Shown: one piece after another, positions 56 to 9,652 of the stretch
How positions within the stretch are numbered: the stretch's first letter is position 1
Layout: each line of letters starts with the position of its first letter
Notes under the pieces: model-generated
Told to the model about the DNA's origin: nothing
Databases searched by the model: none
What the model saw: the letters and a program-made list of their open reading frames with translations, nothing else
Program-made: the position numbers and the translations under genes
Virus genome (UHGV): UHGV-1483427
DNA: 26,524 nt
Source of the DNA: a virus
Direction: 5' to 3' (one strand)

Positions 56-216
56 TTTATCAGTTCGCTCCCATCCGTACCAGTCCGCAAAATCCCCAGA
101 ATATCAAGCCTCCCGGAAACTCACAGTTCGTCATGGTTCGCTTCAGATCGTTGACAGCCGCACTCCATGACGGGTAAAAAGTGGATAAAATAATTTTACC
201 CACCGGATTTTTACCC

Positions 217-1374
217 ATGCTCACCGTTAAGCAGATTGAAGCAGCAAAGCCGAAAGAAAAACCATACCGCCTTCTCGATGGTAATGGCCTGTACCTTTAT
301 GTCCCTGTATCCGGGAAAAAGGTATGGCAGCTTCGCTACAAGATTGACGGTAAGGAAAAAATACTGACCGTAGGAAAATATCCGCTTATGACTTTGCAGG
401 AGGCAAGGGATAAAGCATGGACTGCGAGGAAAGACATCTCGGTTGGCATCGATCCGGTAAAGGCGAAAAAGGCCTCGTCTAACAACAATTCCTTTAGTGC
501 GATTTACAAGGAATGGTACGAGCACAAGAAGCAAGTCTGGTCAGTAGGCTATGCAACTGAACTTGCCAAAATGTTTGATGACGACATTTTACCCATCATC
601 GGCGGTCTTGAGATTCTGGATATTGAGCCGATGCAACTGCTGGAAGTAATCCGCAGATTTGAAGATCGCGGTGCAATGGAGCGAGCCAACAAAGCCCGCA
701 GAAGATGCGGCGAGGTTTTCCGTTACGCTATTGTCACTGGTAGGGCTAAATATAACCCGGCACCTGACCTTGCTGACGCCATGAAGGGATACCGCAAGAA
801 GAACTTCCCGTTTCTTCCTGCAGACCAGATCCCGGCATTCAACAAAGCACTGGCAACATTTTCAGGAAGTATCGTATCGCTCATTGCCACCAAGGTTTTA
901 CGCTACACAGCCCTCAGAACAAAAGAGCTTCGTTCCATGCAATGGAAGAACGTCGATTTTGAAAACAGGATTATCACTATCGACGCCAATGTGATGAAGG
1001 GACGCAAAATTCATGTGGTCCCGATGTCAGACCAGGTGGTTGAACTTCTCACTACGCTAAGCTCCATCACCAAACCAGTATCAGAGTTTGTTTTTTCCGG
1101 GCGTAACGATAAGAAGAAGCCAATCTGCGAGAACGCGGTATTGCTTGTGATCAAACAAATCGGCTATGAAGGTCTGGAAAGCGGTCACGGATTCAGGCAT
1201 GAATTCAGCACGATTATGAACGAGCACGAATGGCCTGCTGATGCTATTGAAGTGCAACTGGCACATGCCAACGGCGGATCTGTGCGCGGGATTTACAACC
1301 ATGCTCAGTATCTCGATAAGCGCAGAGAAATGATGCAGTGGTGGGCGGACTGGCTTGATGGGAAGGCTGAGTAA
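217..1374 (+). CDS. int: Tyrosine recombinase / prophage integrase (IntS/CPS-53-like, P4-type family)
   Basis: 385-aa product from ATG 217 (the track ORF begins at an upstream GTG, 181). The MLTVKQIEAAKPKEK... N-terminus and C-terminal catalytic region (R..HGFRH..Y) match my recollection of argW-associated IntS. Sits immediately 3' of the tRNA. Confidence 0.9.
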   Translation: MLTVKQIEAAKPKEKPYRLLDGNGLYLYVPVSGKKVWQLRYKIDGKEKILTVGKYPLMTLQEARDKAWTARKDISVGIDPVKAKKASSNNNSFSAIYKEWYEHKKQVWSVGYATELAKMFDDDILPIIGGLEILDIEPMQLLEVIRRFEDRGAMERANKARRRCGEVFRYAIVTGRAKYNPAPDLADAMKGYRKKNFPFLPADQIPAFNKALATFSGSIVSLIATKVLRYTALRTKELRSMQWKNVDFENRIITIDANVMKGRKIHVVPMSDQVVELLTTLSSITKPVSEFVFSGRNDKKKPICENAVLLVIKQIGYEGLESGHGFRHEFSTIMNEHEWPADAIEVQLAHANGGSVRGIYNHAQYLDKRREMMQWWADWLDGKAE

Positions 1375-1690
1375 TTAATCTTTAATCAGAGGGTAACAAT
1401 GCATGGCTCAGTGAACTAAGCCAATCACTTGTGATCTCCAATTGTTAATCTTATTAGTTCTAGATACTGGATTTATGCCATGATGCTTGTAGATTAGAAA
1501 GCAGTAGACTATACAACACTGCGGTCAAATAATTATCAAGCATAATCACGGTATACACATTTTTTTGATAACGTAAGGATAGTGAGCCATCGATGCCATA
1601 TTCAATATTTATGCAATTTAAGCATGGTTTATATACACTAATTTTCTTAGTGCCCACAAAATCTTTGATTGTACAAAAAACACAGGGGTA

Positions 1691-2869
1691 ATGGAGATTT
1701 CTATGTTTGACGGATTTAATGGCTTTTTAATTGCTTCTTTATCGGTGATTACTTCACTTTCGGTTGCAAGAATATTTGTCACAGAAACACACTTATCACC
1801 TATCAAAGGAAGGAGTGAATCAATTGATGGGCTTAGAGGATTTCTTGCTTTAATGGTTTTCCTTCATCATTCCAGTTTCTGGTGGCAATACATACATACT
1901 GGGGTTTGGTCTGATCCTGATTCGTTATTTTATACTAATATTGGAAAAATAGCTGTTATTTTCTTTTTTATGATTACAGGCTTCTTGTTCTTCGGGAAAT
2001 TGATTTCGAATAAATCAGTAAATTGGGAAGATTTATTTTGGTCAAGAATAATGAGACTAACACCTATGTATCTGGTTTCGTTATCTCTACTATTCATAAT
2101 TGTGTTCTATGTTTCTGATTGGAAAATTAACACAGGAATTGCCAATCTCATAATATCTATGGCGAGATGGGTTCCTTTTTCTTTCCTTGGAATGCCTGAT
2201 GTTAACGGTCTTCACAAGACGTCGCTTATCATGGCCGGAGTTCCGTGGTCACTTGTTTATGAATGGTTTTTTTATTTATCTCTTCCTTTTATGGCTTTTA
2301 TAATGAGAAGAGACAAATTTAATACTTACACAATTCTTAGTATTGCGAGTGTATTTGCTTTTATTTTCTATCCATCATTAAAAATACATATTTTATCATT
2401 TGTTTTTGGTTATCTGGCAGCAAAAATAAATCACAAACTGCCTAACGGCTTGCCTTTCAATAAAATATTATCAAGCTTATTCGTCATCGTTATCTTATGT
2501 GTAACTTGTTTTTTAATTCCAAATCCTTACAATCCAATAACAATATCACTCTGTGGTATTGCATTTATTCTGATATCAAATGGATGCGATATTTTTGGAG
2601 TTCTTAAGATAAAAACCTGTCAAGTTTTTGGAGAAGCTACATATAGCATGTATCTTCTACATGGCATTATACTTTTTATAACATTTAAAATAATACTTCC
2701 GGTTAGCCATGTTAATCAAATTAACAGCCTTGTATTTTCAGCTATTATTATAATCCTCTCTGGGTTTATCACGCTTATATCATTGCTATGTTTTAGATAT
2801 ATTGAGACACCGTGTAGTAAGTTTAAAAAATTTAATGTACTAACATACACAAGAAGAAAACTTCAGTAA
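1691..2869 (+). CDS. oac: Integral-membrane acyltransferase family 3 protein (Oac-like O-antigen acetyltransferase, serotype-conversion candidate)
   Basis: 392 aa, strongly hydrophobic multi-TM protein with an N-terminal DGLRGFLALMVFLHH motif typical of acyltransferase_3. RBS agggg upstream of ATG 1691. Markedly AT-rich relative to neighbours. Positioned between int and tailspike as oac/gtr genes are in Sf6/CPS-53-type prophages. Confidence 0.8.
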   Translation: MEISMFDGFNGFLIASLSVITSLSVARIFVTETHLSPIKGRSESIDGLRGFLALMVFLHHSSFWWQYIHTGVWSDPDSLFYTNIGKIAVIFFFMITGFLFFGKLISNKSVNWEDLFWSRIMRLTPMYLVSLSLLFIIVFYVSDWKINTGIANLIISMARWVPFSFLGMPDVNGLHKTSLIMAGVPWSLVYEWFFYLSLPFMAFIMRRDKFNTYTILSIASVFAFIFYPSLKIHILSFVFGYLAAKINHKLPNGLPFNKILSSLFVIVILCVTCFLIPNPYNPITISLCGIAFILISNGCDIFGVLKIKTCQVFGEATYSMYLLHGIILFITFKIILPVSHVNQINSLVFSAIIIILSGFITLISLLCFRYIETPCSKFKKFNVLTYTRRKLQ

Positions 2870-2902
2870 AACCACCTCACAAATGAGATGGTTGTTGGTA
2901 AT

Positions 2903-2929
2903 AAAAAGGCGGGCGTGGACTCGCCTTTT
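2903..2929. terminator. Bidirectional intrinsic terminator between convergent oac and tailspike
   Basis: aaaaggcg / cgcctttt stem with a 10-nt loop, A/T-run on both sides; overlaps the tailspike stop codon. Confidence 0.5.
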
Positions 2930-5265
2930 CAGATTGGATAATTACTTACTCTAACATCAGCAAAACTAGTTGTTCCTGTCAAGGAAATATCCATGCGTTC
3001 ATCACAAGCAGGAGCAAGAAAAACCTCTACAGCTACACATTCTGATCTTTTAACATGATATATTGCCTGACGCTCAAGCCACGAATTATCAGATAATAAT
3101 TTTATTGCAGTATTAGATAACGAATTACCTGTAGAATCCAATTCGCGAAAAATGACCGCCGATGATATTGATGTTTCTGATAACGTCCATAGTCTTACAT
3201 AGACAGCGCTTCGTTGAGCTACTCGAAGTGTTGCCACTAATAAACTCTGTACTGATGCGGTATTCTTATCGTTAAGAGTGAATGCATAAGGCGTACCTAC
3301 AGGCTTTGTAGTTGCATCTGTTTTCTCTGGCGCAATAGATATAACAGACTGAAAAAATCTATCCTGATTAGCTAGAATATGACCAGCTATGGAACGCATC
3401 GGTAGAGGGTTAGTACTATGGACAGCATCACTTCTTCCAACACGAAAACCACCTCCTGTATTCTGGCTATTGGCAGTGATAAATACGTCTTGGTTATTGT
3501 CTACAAGCACTTCACCTGAACACGAACTAGTTATGATCTTACCTACAGAGTTAAATCTTGGTTTTATCTCTTGATTGTCAATTCCGCTAATTAGTCCAGG
3601 CACAAATTCGAATGATACACCAACACCGTTACAGCTAACAGCCGTGATATCTTCAACGTTGATGTCATACCCATTGACAATGCGTACCGCATTATTGTTT
3701 ACCCTTTCGACATAGACATTTTTAATTCGAATGTGCTGTGATTGGAAGTCTGTAGACTCAGAAGGATACGAGTAATTAGTCACGAATATACCAGCCAAGC
3801 CAGCCACACTGGTTGCTGCAGCAACATACTTTCCACCAAGAACATCAATATTCTCTCCTTGAATTTCAAGAAAATTTTTAGTTGCTTTTGATTTTCCTGT
3901 TTGAATTCCGATATTGCCAGCAAGGAATACACCACGGCGTGAACCATCCGTAGAGTGATGGCAATCGTTCATGTCGAATGTTTGGCATGCATCGATAACC
4001 CAATTTTCGCAACCTCTCTTAAAGTCATTCAATGTACGATGGCCGAAAGCAGTGTTGCCGAAACTGAAGATGTTTTTAATGGTATATGTACCGTATTCGC
4101 CAGGTGAATCAATAGAGCCATTCATACACTTAAATGCATTGAATCCAACAGCGGTAAGCATTGGGTCTGTTCCCTCTGATGAACAATACAAATAATTAAT
4201 ACCATCAATCATTCCACCATTAGTTGTGTATCCTTCCCATGCTTCATGTGGGCAGTTTTTGAAATGACATCTTAAAGCAGTAATATTGCGACCAATGGCA
4301 CCGTTATTGAAATGCCAGCAGAATGCGCGAATAATCTTCTGCGGCGCAATGTTATTTATTTCGTAACCGTCTTGGTATTGTCCATCAAAACAAATATCCT
4401 GCAGCATCGCAAAATATAGATCCTTGTCAGGGTTCTTACGGATGAACCAAGAGTAATAGCCAAAGCCATTATTCTCAACGTCTTGCTTTGTTAGTGAGAT
4501 TGGTCTGATAGTAGTACTTGACTTCCCTGCACCAATCCAATGAAACCAGTCGCCAATTTGCACACTACCACTAAACGAGATCACATCTATACCTCTAAAA
4601 TCTAGAGGAACCCTTTTATATTCTGATAATATTTGTAATTTATTTATTACCGATGCGCAGTCAACTCCGCTATGAATGTAGCGACTGCACATGATCGCAT
4701 CATTGAAATTAGAACCATCCATGACGCATAACCATTGACTATTAAGATTTGGATTTTCTGTTGGCGCTACAGTTTTCGGAAGGGAACCAAGCCATTGGTA
4801 ATAAAGTCCATCAGTGTATTTAAGGACCTGTTTTCTATTGGTAATAGTATATCCAGACGCAAAATCGCCATCAATTATTCGACTGTATTCTGATATTTCG
4901 AAATTTCCCTTTGCCCACAAGGAAAACTGATCAGGATCATACTTCAGAACATTCGGAAAATAGAACTGCTGCGCTCCATATGCATCATAAACAGCCATCG
5001 AATGACCTTGCACAGTTACAAACTTGGCAATCTGCCCGTTATATACAGGATATCCAGCAGCGTTAATGATGATTGGTTGCGATACAGGAACATGAGAGCC
5101 GTCTTCGTTCTCCACATAAACCTGGATCTGGTTTTCAGTATTTACCGGATCAGTGTCAATTTTTCCGATATAAATCTTTCCATTAGCTACGGCTTTAAAA
5201 GAACGAGCCATAGTGAAGAGTTGCGAAGGCATGCTTACCACAACATTTGCGGTGATATCTGACAT
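2929..5265 (-). CDS. Tailspike protein: P22-gp9-like head-binding N-terminal domain fused to a divergent receptor-binding/depolymerase domain
   Basis: N-terminus [42 protein letters not shown]...VLKYDPDQ matches my recollection of the P22 gp9 head-binding domain; remaining ~660 aa is Gly/Asn/Ser-rich (beta-helix-like composition) and AT-rich. Start set at ATG 5265 (RBS ggag 8 nt upstream) rather than track start 5313. Confidence 0.85.
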
Positions 5266-5386
5266 TTCATTACTCCAGACGAATGATATGATGCAACCAT
5301 GATGTGATTGCATACCGAAATGGTACTATTGAGTATTTATCCAGTAGGTTACGATGCCATTCCACCCAACTGGTGAGGCATCAAGG

Positions 5387-5653
5387 ATGTACAGCAAATA
5401 CGACGAGGCGCAGTTTCACTTGAGACTTCCGCATGAACTCCACGCGAAAATTAAGCAGCGTGCGAAGATGAATAACAGATCGCTGAACTCAGAGATAATT
5501 GCAGCGATTGAAGAATCGTTGACTAAACAAAGCTCTGCATCCGTTTACATTGACGATGCAGAGCGTATGGCAGAACAACAATCTGATATGGTTAAGAAAA
5601 TGGTTTTTGAAACGCTTAAGACCATGTATAGCAATAATAAAAAGGAAACATAG
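5387..5653 (+). CDS. mnt: Mnt-like ribbon-helix-helix repressor (Arc/Mnt family)
   Basis: 88 aa from ATG 5387. The NNRSLNSEIIAAIEESL (RHH) and DDAERMAEQQSDMVKKMVFETLK (C-terminal coiled coil) segments match my recollection of P22 Mnt. Divergent from tailspike, as mnt is from arc-ant-9 in P22 immI. Confidence 0.8.
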   Translation: MYSKYDEAQFHLRLPHELHAKIKQRAKMNNRSLNSEIIAAIEESLTKQSSASVYIDDAERMAEQQSDMVKKMVFETLKTMYSNNKKET

Positions 5654-5723
5654 AAATCTAGTTTCCGGATAAAATGGCATTGCCTTCATGATATCCTGTG
5701 AAAAACTAAGGAGAGTTAACCAT

Positions 5724-6209
5724 ATGAAAAAATCACTGTTAATTATCCCGCTTCTGCTGGTTGGATGCGCAAAAGTAAGTGACTATCAAGCAAGTTGCGA
5801 ACAACGCTATCAAAAGCTTAGCGATATGGCTAATTGCCTTGATGCCAGTGTGAAGAACGACTCACGCATGGCATCAGCACCAACACCTAAGCTGTATGTC
5901 CTTGCTGCAAAGATGCTCGGGCAAGGTGTCGATGAAGGCAAGATAAGTGACGCACAGGCAAGACTTGAGCTTCAGAATCTTTATGTTCAATTACAAAGCC
6001 AAGAACAAGCCCAACAAATAGCACAAAGCCAAGCATTCCAGCAGGCTTTATTGAATTATCAGGCTGTAAACACAATGCAAGCGATCGAGCAAAAAGCGCG
6101 CCAGCCTGTTATAACTCAACCTTACCCAACACGCGTTGACACATATACAAACTGCAATTCAGGGTTTGGAAATACAGTCACATGCAACAGTAGCAGTAAC
6201 ATAAGATAA
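5724..6209 (+). CDS. Predicted lipoprotein, Gln-rich, unknown function (candidate superinfection-exclusion moron)
   Basis: RBS aaggaga 10 nt upstream of ATG 5724. Signal peptide MKKSLLIIPLLLVGC with lipobox LVG|C; Q-rich central region; Cys-containing C-terminus. Occupies the sieA-equivalent position between ejection genes and mnt. Confidence 0.7.
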   Translation: MKKSLLIIPLLLVGCAKVSDYQASCEQRYQKLSDMANCLDASVKNDSRMASAPTPKLYVLAAKMLGQGVDEGKISDAQARLELQNLYVQLQSQEQAQQIAQSQAFQQALLNYQAVNTMQAIEQKARQPVITQPYPTRVDTYTNCNSGFGNTVTCNSSSNIR

Positions 6210-6299
6210 CAATCAGCAAAGGTATCGCCTATGCAGAGTGGTACGATAAACCTCGCGTTCTACATATTTGGTTTTTGCACGTTCCTGGTGTTTGAAAAG

Positions 6300-8297
6300 C
6301 TATTCTGACAACGCATCAGACTTAGCCCCCTGCGTCAGAGCGTTAATTGCCTTTTGTGCCTGCTGCATTGCTTTCTCAAAGGCTGTTGATCCGCGTGGGG
6401 TGTTTGCCATTCGGAGCATTGCATTTCTGAATGGTTCGCTCTCATAGGCGCGAGTAAGAAGTCCGTAGCTTACCGCTGCGCCAGTTGTCGCCGGGTTCAT
6501 TGCCGTCCCATACCCGATAATGAACGGGATGGTTTGCTGCCCTGTTGGTGTTGTTACTGCCGCTTTTGCAGCCTGCTGCGTGGATTGCAGGTAGTTTTTC
6601 AATCCTTTCAGATAAGCAGCGTCCTGCCCCTTAAATGTGATGCCAGTCTGGTTTTGCAGGATGTTAAGCTGTCGAAGGAACTGATCAGGGGAACCACCTG
6701 ATTTCTCCATCGCCTTTCCAATGATGCCATTGCGCATTTGCGCCCTGCCAACACGACCAACTGAGTTATACAGCGTCTTAATTTCCGATTTGTTCTTGCT
6801 GAATAGCATGTTGTTGACAACTTCCGGCGTCAGGTCGCCTTTCATGAGAACATTCTTCAGCCTGGTATTCTTTAGTTTCGCCGCTTCGTCAGCGTAGACG
6901 GCATTGGCCTGCTGATATTTACGGAGAGTATCGTTGCCAAGATTCTGACCAATGGCACCATTGATATCATCGGTCATCGCCTTGTAAACGCGCTGAATGG
7001 CAGCATCGGAACGGTTTGGTAACACTGGTCGCTCACCCTTCACGTCCATTCTGAACTGGCTGCGCAGATCGCTTAATTGCTTCAAATCCAGATTTACCGG
7101 ACCATCAGGACCAGCATTGCGAACAAGCTCATCACGATAGGACTGAAGTTTTGAAATAGTCTCGTTATCAGCAACCTTACCAAGCTTCTGCAGGTTAGAT
7201 ATTTCTGTATCAATCTGCTGAATTGCTCTTGCAGGCTGAATGTTTATTCCCGCCATAGCATTCTGAACCTGCTCCAGTCGATTTCCTGCAGCGCGACGAA
7301 TTCCTGATTTTTTCGCTTTAAGGCTGTCAATAACAACTGCCGGATCGTACTCGCCGAATTTATCAGCAAATCTCTGCACCAACTGGCTTCTCGCTTCCTG
7401 TTGCGTTGCTCTCATTCCACTTGTGCCAGCCAGAGGGATATTTTCTGCTGTAGTCTGCGCCATTTTTCCGACGCGGGAAGTTGGTTGTAACAGGTCTGTG
7501 GTGTGCAGAGGAACTCCTTCACGCTCTGAAAATCTGATAGCCTGTTGCGCTTCTGGTGCTATCGAACCACGAACACCACGATAAGCAGCACCTAATCCAC
7601 GTCCGGCAGCGTTAATAGCACCGCCAGCCAGCACACTAACGCCTAAATCGGTGGCGAGTGCTTCCGCATCATCTTTCGCACTGTTTGCAGCAAGTGATCC
7701 AACTGCGTTTTCTGCGAGAAGTCGTGTTGCCCCATGAGCAATTCGACCAGCAAGTGTTGGTGCCTGTGTTGCCGCTCTCTCAACGCCAGCAGGAGTGAGG
7801 TAAGGCAATGCTTCAGCAAATACCCTTCCCTCTGTCGTTTGTGGAGTCAACGCGCCTTGCTGAAGGCCAAAGTCCTGCTCTAATCCCTGCGTTGTTACTC
7901 GTGGCGCTGGTTGATATCTACCATCGCCAATGCCGAGTTTACCGCCAGCCCAAGCCGCCGCGCTTGTTACAGCATCTGCAACTGATGCAGGTATGTTTGC
8001 CACGTTCACGCCAGCCTGCACCAGTCCGCGACCAGTCTCTTTCACTGCTTCACCAAGATCAGACATAAATCCACTTTGCTGTGGTTGTTGCTGTGCTACT
8101 GGTTGCTGTGTATCCACTGGCTGCACAGATGGCAATGGATAGGCAGCATAGAAAGCTTGCTTAGCCTGCTCTGCATTTTCTCCGGCTTGCGGGGCCACGA
8201 CTTCATTGAAGTATTGCTCCTGAGCCTGCGCTTTTTGTTCTGGTGCTAACGCCTGATACTGTGGAGAGGCGATAACATCTTTCCATGCTTTAGCCAT
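6300..8297 (-). CDS. DNA ejection/injection protein (P22 gp16-like position)
   Basis: 665 aa, Ala/Gln/Gly-rich. Third of three consecutive ejection-protein-sized ORFs (230/451/665 aa) in P22/Sf6 order gp7-gp20-gp16. Start overlaps the upstream stop. Confidence 0.7.
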   Translation of the reverse strand: MAKAWKDVIASPQYQALAPEQKAQAQEQYFNEVVAPQAGENAEQAKQAFYAAYPLPSVQPVDTQQPVAQQQPQQSGFMSDLGEAVKETGRGLVQAGVNVANIPASVADAVTSAAAWAGGKLGIGDGRYQPAPRVTTQGLEQDFGLQQGALTPQTTEGRVFAEALPYLTPAGVERAATQAPTLAGRIAHGATRLLAENAVGSLAANSAKDDAEALATDLGVSVLAGGAINAAGRGLGAAYRGVRGSIAPEAQQAIRFSEREGVPLHTTDLLQPTSRVGKMAQTTAENIPLAGTSGMRATQQEARSQLVQRFADKFGEYDPAVVIDSLKAKKSGIRRAAGNRLEQVQNAMAGINIQPARAIQQIDTEISNLQKLGKVADNETISKLQSYRDELVRNAGPDGPVNLDLKQLSDLRSQFRMDVKGERPVLPNRSDAAIQRVYKAMTDDINGAIGQNLGNDTLRKYQQANAVYADEAAKLKNTRLKNVLMKGDLTPEVVNNMLFSKNKSEIKTLYNSVGRVGRAQMRNGIIGKAMEKSGGSPDQFLRQLNILQNQTGITFKGQDAAYLKGLKNYLQSTQQAAKAAVTTPTGQQTIPFIIGYGTAMNPATTGAAVSYGLLTRAYESEPFRNAMLRMANTPRGSTAFEKAMQQAQKAINALTQGAKSDALSE

Positions 8298-9652
8298 TAA
8301 TCACCCCATAGTGAAGAAAAGTTACTGCTGGCTGCTGGCTGTGATACCTGTGCAGGTTGAGATTGATGCCGCTGAGATTTACCAACATTAACGTTATATT
8401 GTTGGTTGTAATTGTTGGTGTATTCCTGAATCTCACGAATCGACTGTTGCATAGCCTCCGGGCTTGAATAGTCAACCTGCGGCATCCCCTGAAAATACAT
8501 CTTCGCTTCTGCAACAGTGTTAATACCACTGGCACCCATGTCCCTTGCTGCCGCCACACCCTGATTCTGCATTCTGCCCTGAATCCGTTGTGCTGAGTTA
8601 TATAACTGGCGCTGCTCTTTTCTTGTTAATCGGCTGCGAACATCAGCACCAATTGCTGGATTACCTGCACCGCCTGTCATTCCTGTCATGAAATCGAGAG
8701 CAGAAGCGTCTGCATTTGCGATCGCGTCGATATCCTTCTTCATGGCATAGTTTTGTGCTGATGCAGACGATGTTGCAGGCGCTGCGATTGAACTGGCAGG
8801 AACGCGAACCATATTCCCCTCGTTGTCGATGCCTTCGTAGAACGCATTAGCCCCAGCGCCATGAAGCTTCCCGCCGACAGTTACAGTTCTGCCATCTGAT
8901 AACTGAACTGTACGCTCATCATTCCCAGCAGTTCCTCTTGTTGACGATCGCTGCATTGCCAAATCCTGACCGCGCATCGTGATGTTCTGACCACGCGCTG
9001 TTAGTGCTTCTCCGGCCTGATTGCTGCGGATTGTCTCTGCCAGCCTGCCTCGGTCAATCTCACGACCAGCCATCTTGTCCTGAACATTAAAGTAGTCAAT
9101 CGGACCGAGAGCAGCCATCCCAAGGTGATCAACAAACTCACCAAATCCTGAAGGATTCTGCTGATACATCTGAGCAACGCTGTTAGGGTCAACACCGACG
9201 CGAGTCAGTTCCTTGGCGTTGTTTTGCAGCCATGATTGCATTGCTTCTGGAGACGATGACGCAAGGCGTGCGCCAGCCGCTAAGGTGCCGATAGAATTAC
9301 GCTGGTCTTCATCAATGAATCCCATGCCTTTACGAACGGATTCAATCTGGTCTGGATATTCAGTAGCTAACTGACGCAAAGCACCGCGATCACCAGACGC
9401 ATAAGCATTAGCGTATGCCTGCTGAAATTCTTTCTGCCGCTGAGCCTGCTTTTCCTGCTGAAACACCCCCGCAATACCTGAAAGGCCTTGCAAAGCAGTC
9501 AGCCCAACATTGTTAGCGCCTGAACGCTCAATATCATTGTTCTGCCTGATAAGCTGAAGCGTATTGCCGATGTCATTTACGTTCGGAGCGTTTGAGTTGA
9601 CACCACCGATACCAGCCAACAATCCGCCATTTGTTCCTTGCCAAGTAGCCAT
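8297..9652 (-). CDS. DNA ejection/injection protein (P22 gp20-like position)
   Basis: 451 aa, Gly/Ala/Gln-rich. Sits between the gp7-like and gp16-like ORFs in the same strand block. Confidence 0.7.

Follow-up and report, generated by a model that had tools for sequence, protein, structure and literature searches.

The virus genome UHGV-1483427, analysed here over its full stretch of 26,524 nucleotides (the window), reads as a P22-like prophage of the Sf6/HK620 type integrated at argW. Between its integrase gene and the head-binding part of its tailspike gene lies a cassette that encodes a membrane acyltransferase and most of the tailspike. The late genes in the window are 94-96% identical to those of HK620, Sf6 and relatives, and a locus 99.2% identical to the window in Escherichia coli strain 18KM2445 adjoins tRNA-Arg and yfdC. 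In this near-identical locus (L001), the integrase, annotated intS, follows tRNA-Arg. The integrase reads away from attL/argW, and the acyltransferase converges with the tailspike across 59 nucleotides, which gives the order expected of a serotype-converting module, with the modification gene between the tailspike and the int/att end (int, acyltransferase, then the tailspike on the opposite strand). The full tailspike open reading frame (ORF) occupies 2929-5265 on the minus strand and encodes 778 amino acids. The features of the region are:

181-1374, plus strand: tyrosine integrase of the IntS/Sf6 gp16 type (Pfam Phage_integrase, Phage_int_M and Arm-DNA-bind_3); conserved left flank

1367-1702, no strand: left junction and AT-rich region upstream of the acyltransferase, with a presumed promoter; Sf6 homology stops at 1366

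1703-2869, plus strand: membrane O-acyltransferase, AT3 domain only, OacB-like, 388 amino acids (Pfam PF01757, phrog_3333)

2904-2929, no strand: hairpin resembling a bidirectional intrinsic terminator (from folding and U-runs)

2929-4677, minus strand: tailspike residues 197-778, predicted beta-helix body and C-terminal beta-sandwich; presumed depolymerase and receptor-binding part, which defines the family

4678-4920, minus strand: tailspike residues 116-196, linker and small Tail_spike_N domain of the CBA120 TSP1 type (Pfam PF18668 at residues 130-172); second exchangeable sub-module

4921-5265, minus strand: tailspike residues 1-115, P22-type head-binding domain that anchors the spike to the particle (Pfam PF09008); conserved right flank

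The limits of the cassette are set by comparison with Sf6. DNA homology to Sf6 covers 41-1366 (the attP-int region) at 96% identity and is found again at 4925-5281 at 86%, where the head-binding DNA from 4925 onwards is also 93% identical to Sf101. The break at 1366 and the resumption at 4925 therefore delimit a foreign cassette at 1367-4924, which contains the upstream region, the acyltransferase gene, the terminator and tailspike codons ~115-778. The original prediction, made from the letters of the window, had drawn the module at 1375-5265; that region holds both genes, but the foreign DNA is 1367-4924. Between 950 and 955 E. coli genomes match the head-binding segment (4921-5265) only. The predicted AT-richness of the pair is borne out by the G+C fraction and its value at third codon positions (GC3), which are 0.318 and 0.262 in the acyltransferase gene and 0.395 and 0.309 in tailspike codons 116-778, compared with 0.477 and 0.533 in the integrase and 0.507 and 0.435 in a gp16-like late gene (GC3 of 0.26-0.31 in the cassette vs 0.44-0.53 in the two backbone genes). 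The G+C fraction is 0.42 in the head-binding part of the tailspike, 0.335 in the region 1375-1702 and 0.484 in the window from 6300 on. The cassette region is already in public databases under the generic names “phage head-binding domain-containing protein” and “acyltransferase”, and the database carriers of the module are E. coli, E. albertii and one Shigella-labelled assembly. Assemblies with the spike fall into at least 52 index blocks.

Within the non-coding parts of the cassette, a promoter scan of the upstream region (1367-1702) gave matches no commoner than in shuffled sequence, and the scan was not used. Phase variation through Dam methylation of GATC sites upstream of the acyltransferase, as in gtr operons, was considered and dropped because only one GATC was seen by eye in 1375-1700. 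Between the two genes, the hairpin AAAAAGGCGGG-CGTGGA-CTCGCCTTTT lies at 2904-2929, with its last base overlapping the tailspike stop codon. It folds at -13.4 kcal/mol on the plus strand (z -3.1) and at -13.2 kcal/mol on the minus strand (z -4.8), and this two-strand folding together with U-runs on both sides makes it a candidate bidirectional terminator. A simple terminator scanner missed it because its T-run is just 4.

The acyltransferase matches Pfam PF01757 (Acyl_transf_3) with an E-value of 7e-29 and 101.3 bits against a gathering cut-off of 31, over profile positions 3-318 of 326, and phrog_3333, O-acetyltransferase, with an E-value of 9e-53. Translation from the ATG at 1703 gives 388 amino acids, and this start is preceded by GGAG and agrees with the orthologues and RefSeq entries, which begin MFDGFNG; with a start at the in-frame ATG further upstream, at 1691, the protein would have 392. 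Among characterised enzymes, Sf101 OacB comes nearest, with 40% identity over 95% of the protein. Mutagenesis of OacB found R47, H58, W71, F98, R116, R119 and S146 to be essential (PMC8952252), and six of these seven are kept in the window as R49, H60, W73, F100, R119 and R122 (numbering of the 392-residue form). R49, H60, R119 and R122, the Arg/His residues on which the original prediction depended, are invariant in an alignment with OacB, Oac and the orthologues, and W73 and F100 are present in all except Sf6 Oac. These residues include two motifs on which activity depends, R-X10-H of the first transmembrane segment and RXXR (R47/H58 and R116/R119 in OacB, R14/H25 and R69/R72 in OafA). No C-terminal periplasmic SGNH domain of the OafA/OafB type was found. 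The protein had been called Oac-like and convergent with the tailspike; the AT3 assignment and the convergence stand, but OacB-like is the better name, since Sf6 Oac was not recovered with the window protein by tblastn at an E-value of 1e-3. Sf6 Oac itself (333 amino acids) aligns with OacB at 24% identity and has no equivalents of W71 and F98. We infer that the window enzyme is an OacB-like AT3 O-antigen acetyltransferase.

Broken copies of this gene also occur. An IMG/VR contig (L014, 7055-8230) carries an acyltransferase gene with T7-to-T6 and A5-to-A6 homopolymer indels and stop codons between them, at sites that correspond to 2267-2273 (T7) and 2422-2426 (A5) in the window. A 247-residue protein from 4 contigs (P0182) is the A6 frameshift, and two proteins of 202 and 200 residues (P0181 and P0186, from 5 and 2 contigs) are truncated near residue 200. 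Such copies may reflect errors of sequencing, gene decay or on/off switching at a low level. In another locus (L031, 1822-4592), an OacB-like AT3 gene (49% identity) directly follows a Sulfatase-family gene that resembles phosphoethanolamine transferases, beside a phage lysis module, and this may be a double O-antigen modification cassette.

The tailspike is anchored like that of P22. Pfam Head_binding (PF09008) covers residues 1-113 with an E-value of 2.6e-66, and residues 1-115 align to residues 1-115 of Sf6 gp14 (E-value 9e-64) and also to P22 gp9, up to residue 115/125; with this domain and with neighbouring late genes of P22/Sf6/HK620 type, the spike belongs with the P22-like (Lederbergvirus) tailspikes. 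Beyond the anchor this likeness is lost. PDB sequence matches, which are to Sf6, P22 and HK620-type tailspikes, end at residues 115-126, and Pfam Tail_spike_N (PF18668) follows at residues 130-172. No PHROG match was found beyond residue ~200, an NCBIfam search returned nothing, and a profile of 41 family members searched against the PDB matched the anchor and Tail_spike_N regions but no body. Homology to the bodies of P22 gp9, Sf6 gp14 or HK620 gp9 was not found by PDB sequence, profile, or DNA and tblastn searches of the phage collection. The original prediction of a P22-type anchor on a non-P22 body is upheld, with all PDB, Pfam and PHROG sequence matches confined to residues 1-~200, and so is its remark on length, as the Sf6 and P22 chains have 623 and 667 residues compared with 778 here. 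Siphovirus-type relatives align from residue 133, and the relatives in one E. coli prophage locus (L007) and in Xenorhabdus align only from residues 197-199. The two alignment starts therefore place the body proper at residues 197-778 and mark two exchange junctions.

An AlphaFold2 model of residues 116-778 as a monomer, built on the family alignment, has a mean predicted local distance difference test (pLDDT) score of 91.7 and a predicted template modelling score of 0.85. Its elements are a small beta domain at the N-terminus, a capping helix, a long right-handed parallel beta-helix and a beta-sandwich at the C-terminus. Foldseek ranks CBA120 TSP4 first (E-value 1e-11), followed by K2 depolymerases, TSP2/3 and HK620, so the beta-helix expected in the original prediction appears in the model with tailspike depolymerases top-ranked. 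We are confident that the predicted body belongs to the right-handed parallel beta-helix class, an architecture common to CBA120 TSP1-4, HK620, the Klebsiella K2 depolymerases and Det7. Identity between the model and solved tailspikes is at most 14%, with TM-scores of 0.2-0.44. The fold class is thus ordinary and a close characterised relative is lacking, as all structural matches are at or below 14% identity. Tail_spike_N is shared with the CBA120 spikes at the sequence level, but the window body differs from CBA120 TSP1-4, HK620, K2 and Det7 in having no sequence-detectable homology to theirs.

Across the 41 family members, the acidic and histidine positions E215, D222, D294, E420, D434, H436, D440 and E467 are invariant. 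Several of them fall within or near an invariant motif at residues 431-443 (window 3937-3975), and we regard them as candidate active-site residues in a spike that would be a trimeric glycosidase. The body could instead be a receptor-binding protein that only binds, or an esterase that deacetylates its receptor. To our knowledge, the deacetylating spikes described so far have SGNH folds, not beta-helices, and the strictly conserved cluster of E420, D434, H436, D440 and E467 is typical of an active site. We consider a spike other than a glycosidase very improbable.

The body defines a family that is shared among unlike phages. The best relatives in the phage collection, found by tblastn, are 47-53% identical and uncharacterised, which leaves the window spike far from any tailspike of known specificity; two belong to Enterobacter Kayfunavirus phages and two to Escherichia Braunvirinae phages. 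With vB_VIPECLMC06 and vB_EholP_HHH (Kayfunavirus), TR3 and ZL19 (Braunvirinae) and Enterobacter and E. coli prophages taken together, the body is 47-58% identical over ~97% of residues 116-778, usually with the same Tail_spike_N domain. Their N-terminal anchors are unlike that of the window (T7-tail type, siphovirus type and others), and the lytic-phage relatives, unlike the window, have no adjacent modification gene. The family gave 43 matches in a word-indexed 5.8-billion set, ~61 representatives at an E-value of 1e-30 or below among 1.84 billion, and matches on six IMG/VR contigs. Of the GTDB species genomes just one has it, that of Xenorhabdus hominickii, with two copies of a 45%-related body (L020/L021, 5001-6689) and no AT3 or gtr genes detected within 5-kb flanks. 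The L007 spike (6001-9559, protein cluster of P0012) is an 824-residue member from a non-P22 prophage, with a holin/GH19 lysis cassette lying downstream; its type recurs in E. coli and in E. cloacae/hormaechei at identities of 90% or above, which suggests cross-genus phages or a shared receptor.

A candidate receptor emerges from the lysogens. In 18KM2445, the galF-gnd O-antigen cluster (L011, 14521-26111) reads rfbBDAC-GT2-GT4-GT2-wzx-(ATP-grasp)-GT4-wzy-galE and has a G+C fraction of ~0.30, near that of the acyltransferase gene. Its wzx-to-wzy part is present in 3 of 5426 complete E. coli genomes. Only two complete genomes carry the body family, 18KM2445 and 2017.17.01CC, and both are among these three; given the first, the second would share the cluster by chance with a probability of about 2 in 5425. 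The spike of 2017.17.01CC, at 54% identity, belongs to another prophage, which has a different AT3 gene. Five further assemblies (HFX449..., HCU602..., HCU674..., EFP2414... and EFG645...) have this wzy together with the spike or the acyltransferase, where the assignment to one assembly was made from neighbouring NCBI accession numbers; this comparison replaced a sample-overlap test, which gave too few places. At least six Enterobacter assemblies combine a spike related at 52% with a wzy related at 51%, as judged from neighbouring accessions, contigs of identical length and a common locus-tag prefix, LTW91. The simplest interpretation is that spikes of this body family recognise the type of O-antigen that these homologous clusters produce.

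At the DNA level, “O48 family” clusters share 81% identity with the 3′ half of the E. coli cluster (GT4 and wzy), while its 5′ half is unmatched, and its wzy is 76% identical to the “O48 family” wzy. Homologues of this wzy occur at 51% in the E. cloacae complex and at ~40% in Vibrio, in parallel with the taxa of the spike family. The serogroup-specific Wzx/Wzy models of NCBIfam had no match in the 18KM2445 cluster, and a wzy scan of GTDB species representatives found nothing. The strain names were not found in the literature, and papers on OgN types and E. cloacae O-antigens gave no serogroup mapping. The original prediction held that the glycan specificity could not be deduced from sequence; this is not wholly so, as the hosts share one rare O-antigen gene cluster. 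Downstream of the 18KM2445 cluster lie ugd and a gene for an NAD-dependent epimerase, and these hint at a uronic acid, possibly with an amide-linked amino acid.

The two proteins might have different substrates, with the spike targeting capsule, colanic acid or another exopolysaccharide, or the acyltransferase acting on peptidoglycan, enterobacterial common antigen or capsule, or both. AT3 proteins act on many surface glycans (PMC9558356), and capsule depolymerases are found among beta-helix spikes of related fold. The best PHROG match of the tailspike is named “colonic acid degradation”, a function that we rejected, since the match covers nothing but the head-binding residues 1-115. Against different substrates, OacB, the characterised AT3 enzyme nearest to that of the window, acetylates O-antigen, and the genes are arranged as in Sf6 and Sf101, which are known O-antigen converters. 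In addition, one particular galF-gnd O-antigen cluster accompanies the spike family in E. coli, as does the wzy homologue of that cluster in Enterobacter. On balance, different substrates seem improbable.

In Sf6, the module has the same order and orientation as in the window: gene 14 (tailspike), a terminator, then gene 15 (oac) and gene 16 (int) on the other strand, and attP. An annotated terminator occupies the same place as the window hairpin, a putative oac promoter lies at a place equivalent to 1367-1702, and the argW integration site is of the same type. The differences are that the Sf6 spike body after residue ~115 is unrelated in sequence and that Sf6 Oac is only distantly related to the window enzyme. 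Sf101 is closer on the side of the enzyme, as OacB is the closest characterised homologue, of similar length, with an AT3 domain only, and encoded convergently beside a Lederbergvirus tailspike. In Sf101, int is divergent from oacB, unlike the window, where int and the acyltransferase are co-directional, and the window host does not have the S. flexneri O-antigen backbone. OacB carries out 3/4-O-acetylation of rhamnose III (PMC4159516, PMC8952252); at 40% identity, this acceptor sugar and position cannot be transferred to the window enzyme.

The pair of genes is also found outside P22-like phages. Orthologous pairs, convergent too, are present in two lambda-like siphovirus prophages, one in E. 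hormaechei (L002) and one on metagenome contigs of unidentified host (L003/L004), where the prophage adjoins thrS. Compared with the window, the body is 54% and the acyltransferase 65-67% identical, and a single blastn alignment of 2.8 kb at 64% identity runs from the acyltransferase gene through the intergenic region into the spike gene. This continuous alignment supports transfer as a unit across phage morphotypes. With the sharp breakpoints against Sf6 and the deviant composition of the cassette, it sustains the horizontal exchange proposed in the original prediction.

Taken together, the locus is probably a module for recognition and serotype conversion in the manner of Sf6, in which the spike binds and probably cleaves a rhamnose-pathway O-antigen and the OacB-like enzyme acetylates that O-antigen in lysogens, altering the serotype and hindering like phages. 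The segment from the int end to tailspike codon ~115 has given way to the foreign cassette, and the resulting spike would dock on the virion through its conserved head-binding domain. Tail_spike_N and a trimeric right-handed beta-helix body are proposed to bind, and probably cleave, the O-antigen of the rare rhamnose-pathway E. coli cluster. In the lysogen, the acyltransferase would move an acetyl group across the inner membrane onto the same O-antigen, a rhamnose residue being a plausible acceptor. Acetylation may then change the serotype and make the lysogen a poor receptor for phages with the same kind of spike. That the enzyme modifies the very glycan that the tailspike binds is suggested by the architecture and by analogy with known converters. 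The observations in the original prediction are thus confirmed, and its interpretation of the pair as receptor recognition plus receptor modification is supported.

Several points weigh against this reading. The body family adjoins three non-homologous modification systems: the window-type AT3 gene, a 28%-identical AT3 gene (L007 in E. coli, and L019) and gtrABC (L009 and L015-L018), and therefore the slot is general. In L029/L030, an OacB-like AT3 enzyme, 46% identical to that of the window and at 52% identity to OacB, is encoded convergently with an unrelated spike, and therefore the pairing is not obligatory. In a minority of lysogens the acyltransferase gene carries a frameshift or truncation, and it is therefore dispensable for the prophage; the window enzyme also has G149 at the position of OacB S146. 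The catalytic residues of the spike are candidates from conservation within the family. The tailspike family is uncharacterised, and the one paper on a phage with a related spike states that its receptor and depolymerase activity were not tested. On the side of the receptor, shared ancestry of the strains may account for part of the co-occurrence with the O-antigen cluster, as assemblies were counted without lineage de-replication, the same-assembly inference leans on NCBI numbering practice, and the O-type can be placed only by the 76% identity of its wzy to the O48-family wzy.

The first two of these points would also fit positional coincidence, in which the acyltransferase is an O-antigen-modifying moron in the usual slot downstream of the tailspike, unmatched to its specificity; the two genes would have been acquired or retained independently, and acetylation would have no effect on the spike. 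One E. hormaechei assembly (GCA_036710555.1) apparently has two prophages with spikes of the same body family (L002, and the prophage of protein P0275), one paired with an OacB-like AT3 gene (MEG6219957) and the other in the gtrABC-linked cluster (MEG6219486), which implies either that modification by one prophage was no bar to the other or that the order of acquisition allowed it. Yet the closer orthologues of the acyltransferase (65-67%) are found only beside this body family, in three phage backbones, and the continuous 64%-identical alignment crosses the intergenic region. In Sf6, acetylation mediated by oac blocks adsorption of Sf6. We consider coincidence unlikely, though it is the most serious of the alternatives. 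The comparisons indicate that the pairing is kept among closer relatives and that partners have been exchanged deeper in the family.

A bolder extension of the recognition and conversion module, which we put forward tentatively and would not favour as it stands, is that the body and the OacB-like acetylase diverge together as a “key plus lock-changer” cassette. This cassette would move among podovirus and siphovirus backbones, and also between Escherichia and the Enterobacter cloacae complex, targeting an undescribed O-antigen built by homologous clusters in both genera. If this were true, that O-antigen could be recognised from the sequence of the spike family, and the acetylase would serve for self-exclusion specific to it.

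The end of the prophage beyond the tailspike varies among otherwise similar elements. An immI-like region at 5354-6209 departs from the prophage end of 18KM2445, which is otherwise 99% identical. It holds a Mnt/Arc-like repressor gene (5354-5653) and an ORF for a lipoprotein-like product with an LLLVGC lipobox (5688-6209; phrog_6067, function unknown); 18KM2445 has ant/arc genes in place of this region. In one E. coli assembly (L023, 5397-8304) the integrase gene is absent, and the acyltransferase has an altered N-terminus (MRRGFDG..., 391 amino acids) and lies beside yfdC, which looks like a deletion at the prophage end.

The design of this module is already known from Sf6 and Sf101, and its anatomy holds no surprise; the uncharacterised elements are the body family and the receptor. 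Which O-serotype a podovirus or prophage can attack is determined mainly by the tailspike body, and adjacent modification genes are a main source of new serotypes. The cassette leaves the known paradigm of serotype conversion unchanged and adds to it an uncharacterised family of presumed depolymerases and a testable receptor assignment, to an O-antigen cluster that is rare in E. coli and has a homologous counterpart in the E. cloacae complex. This may be of use in phage typing, therapy design and engineered spikes, and may help to explain how O-antigens and their phages come to be shared across genera.

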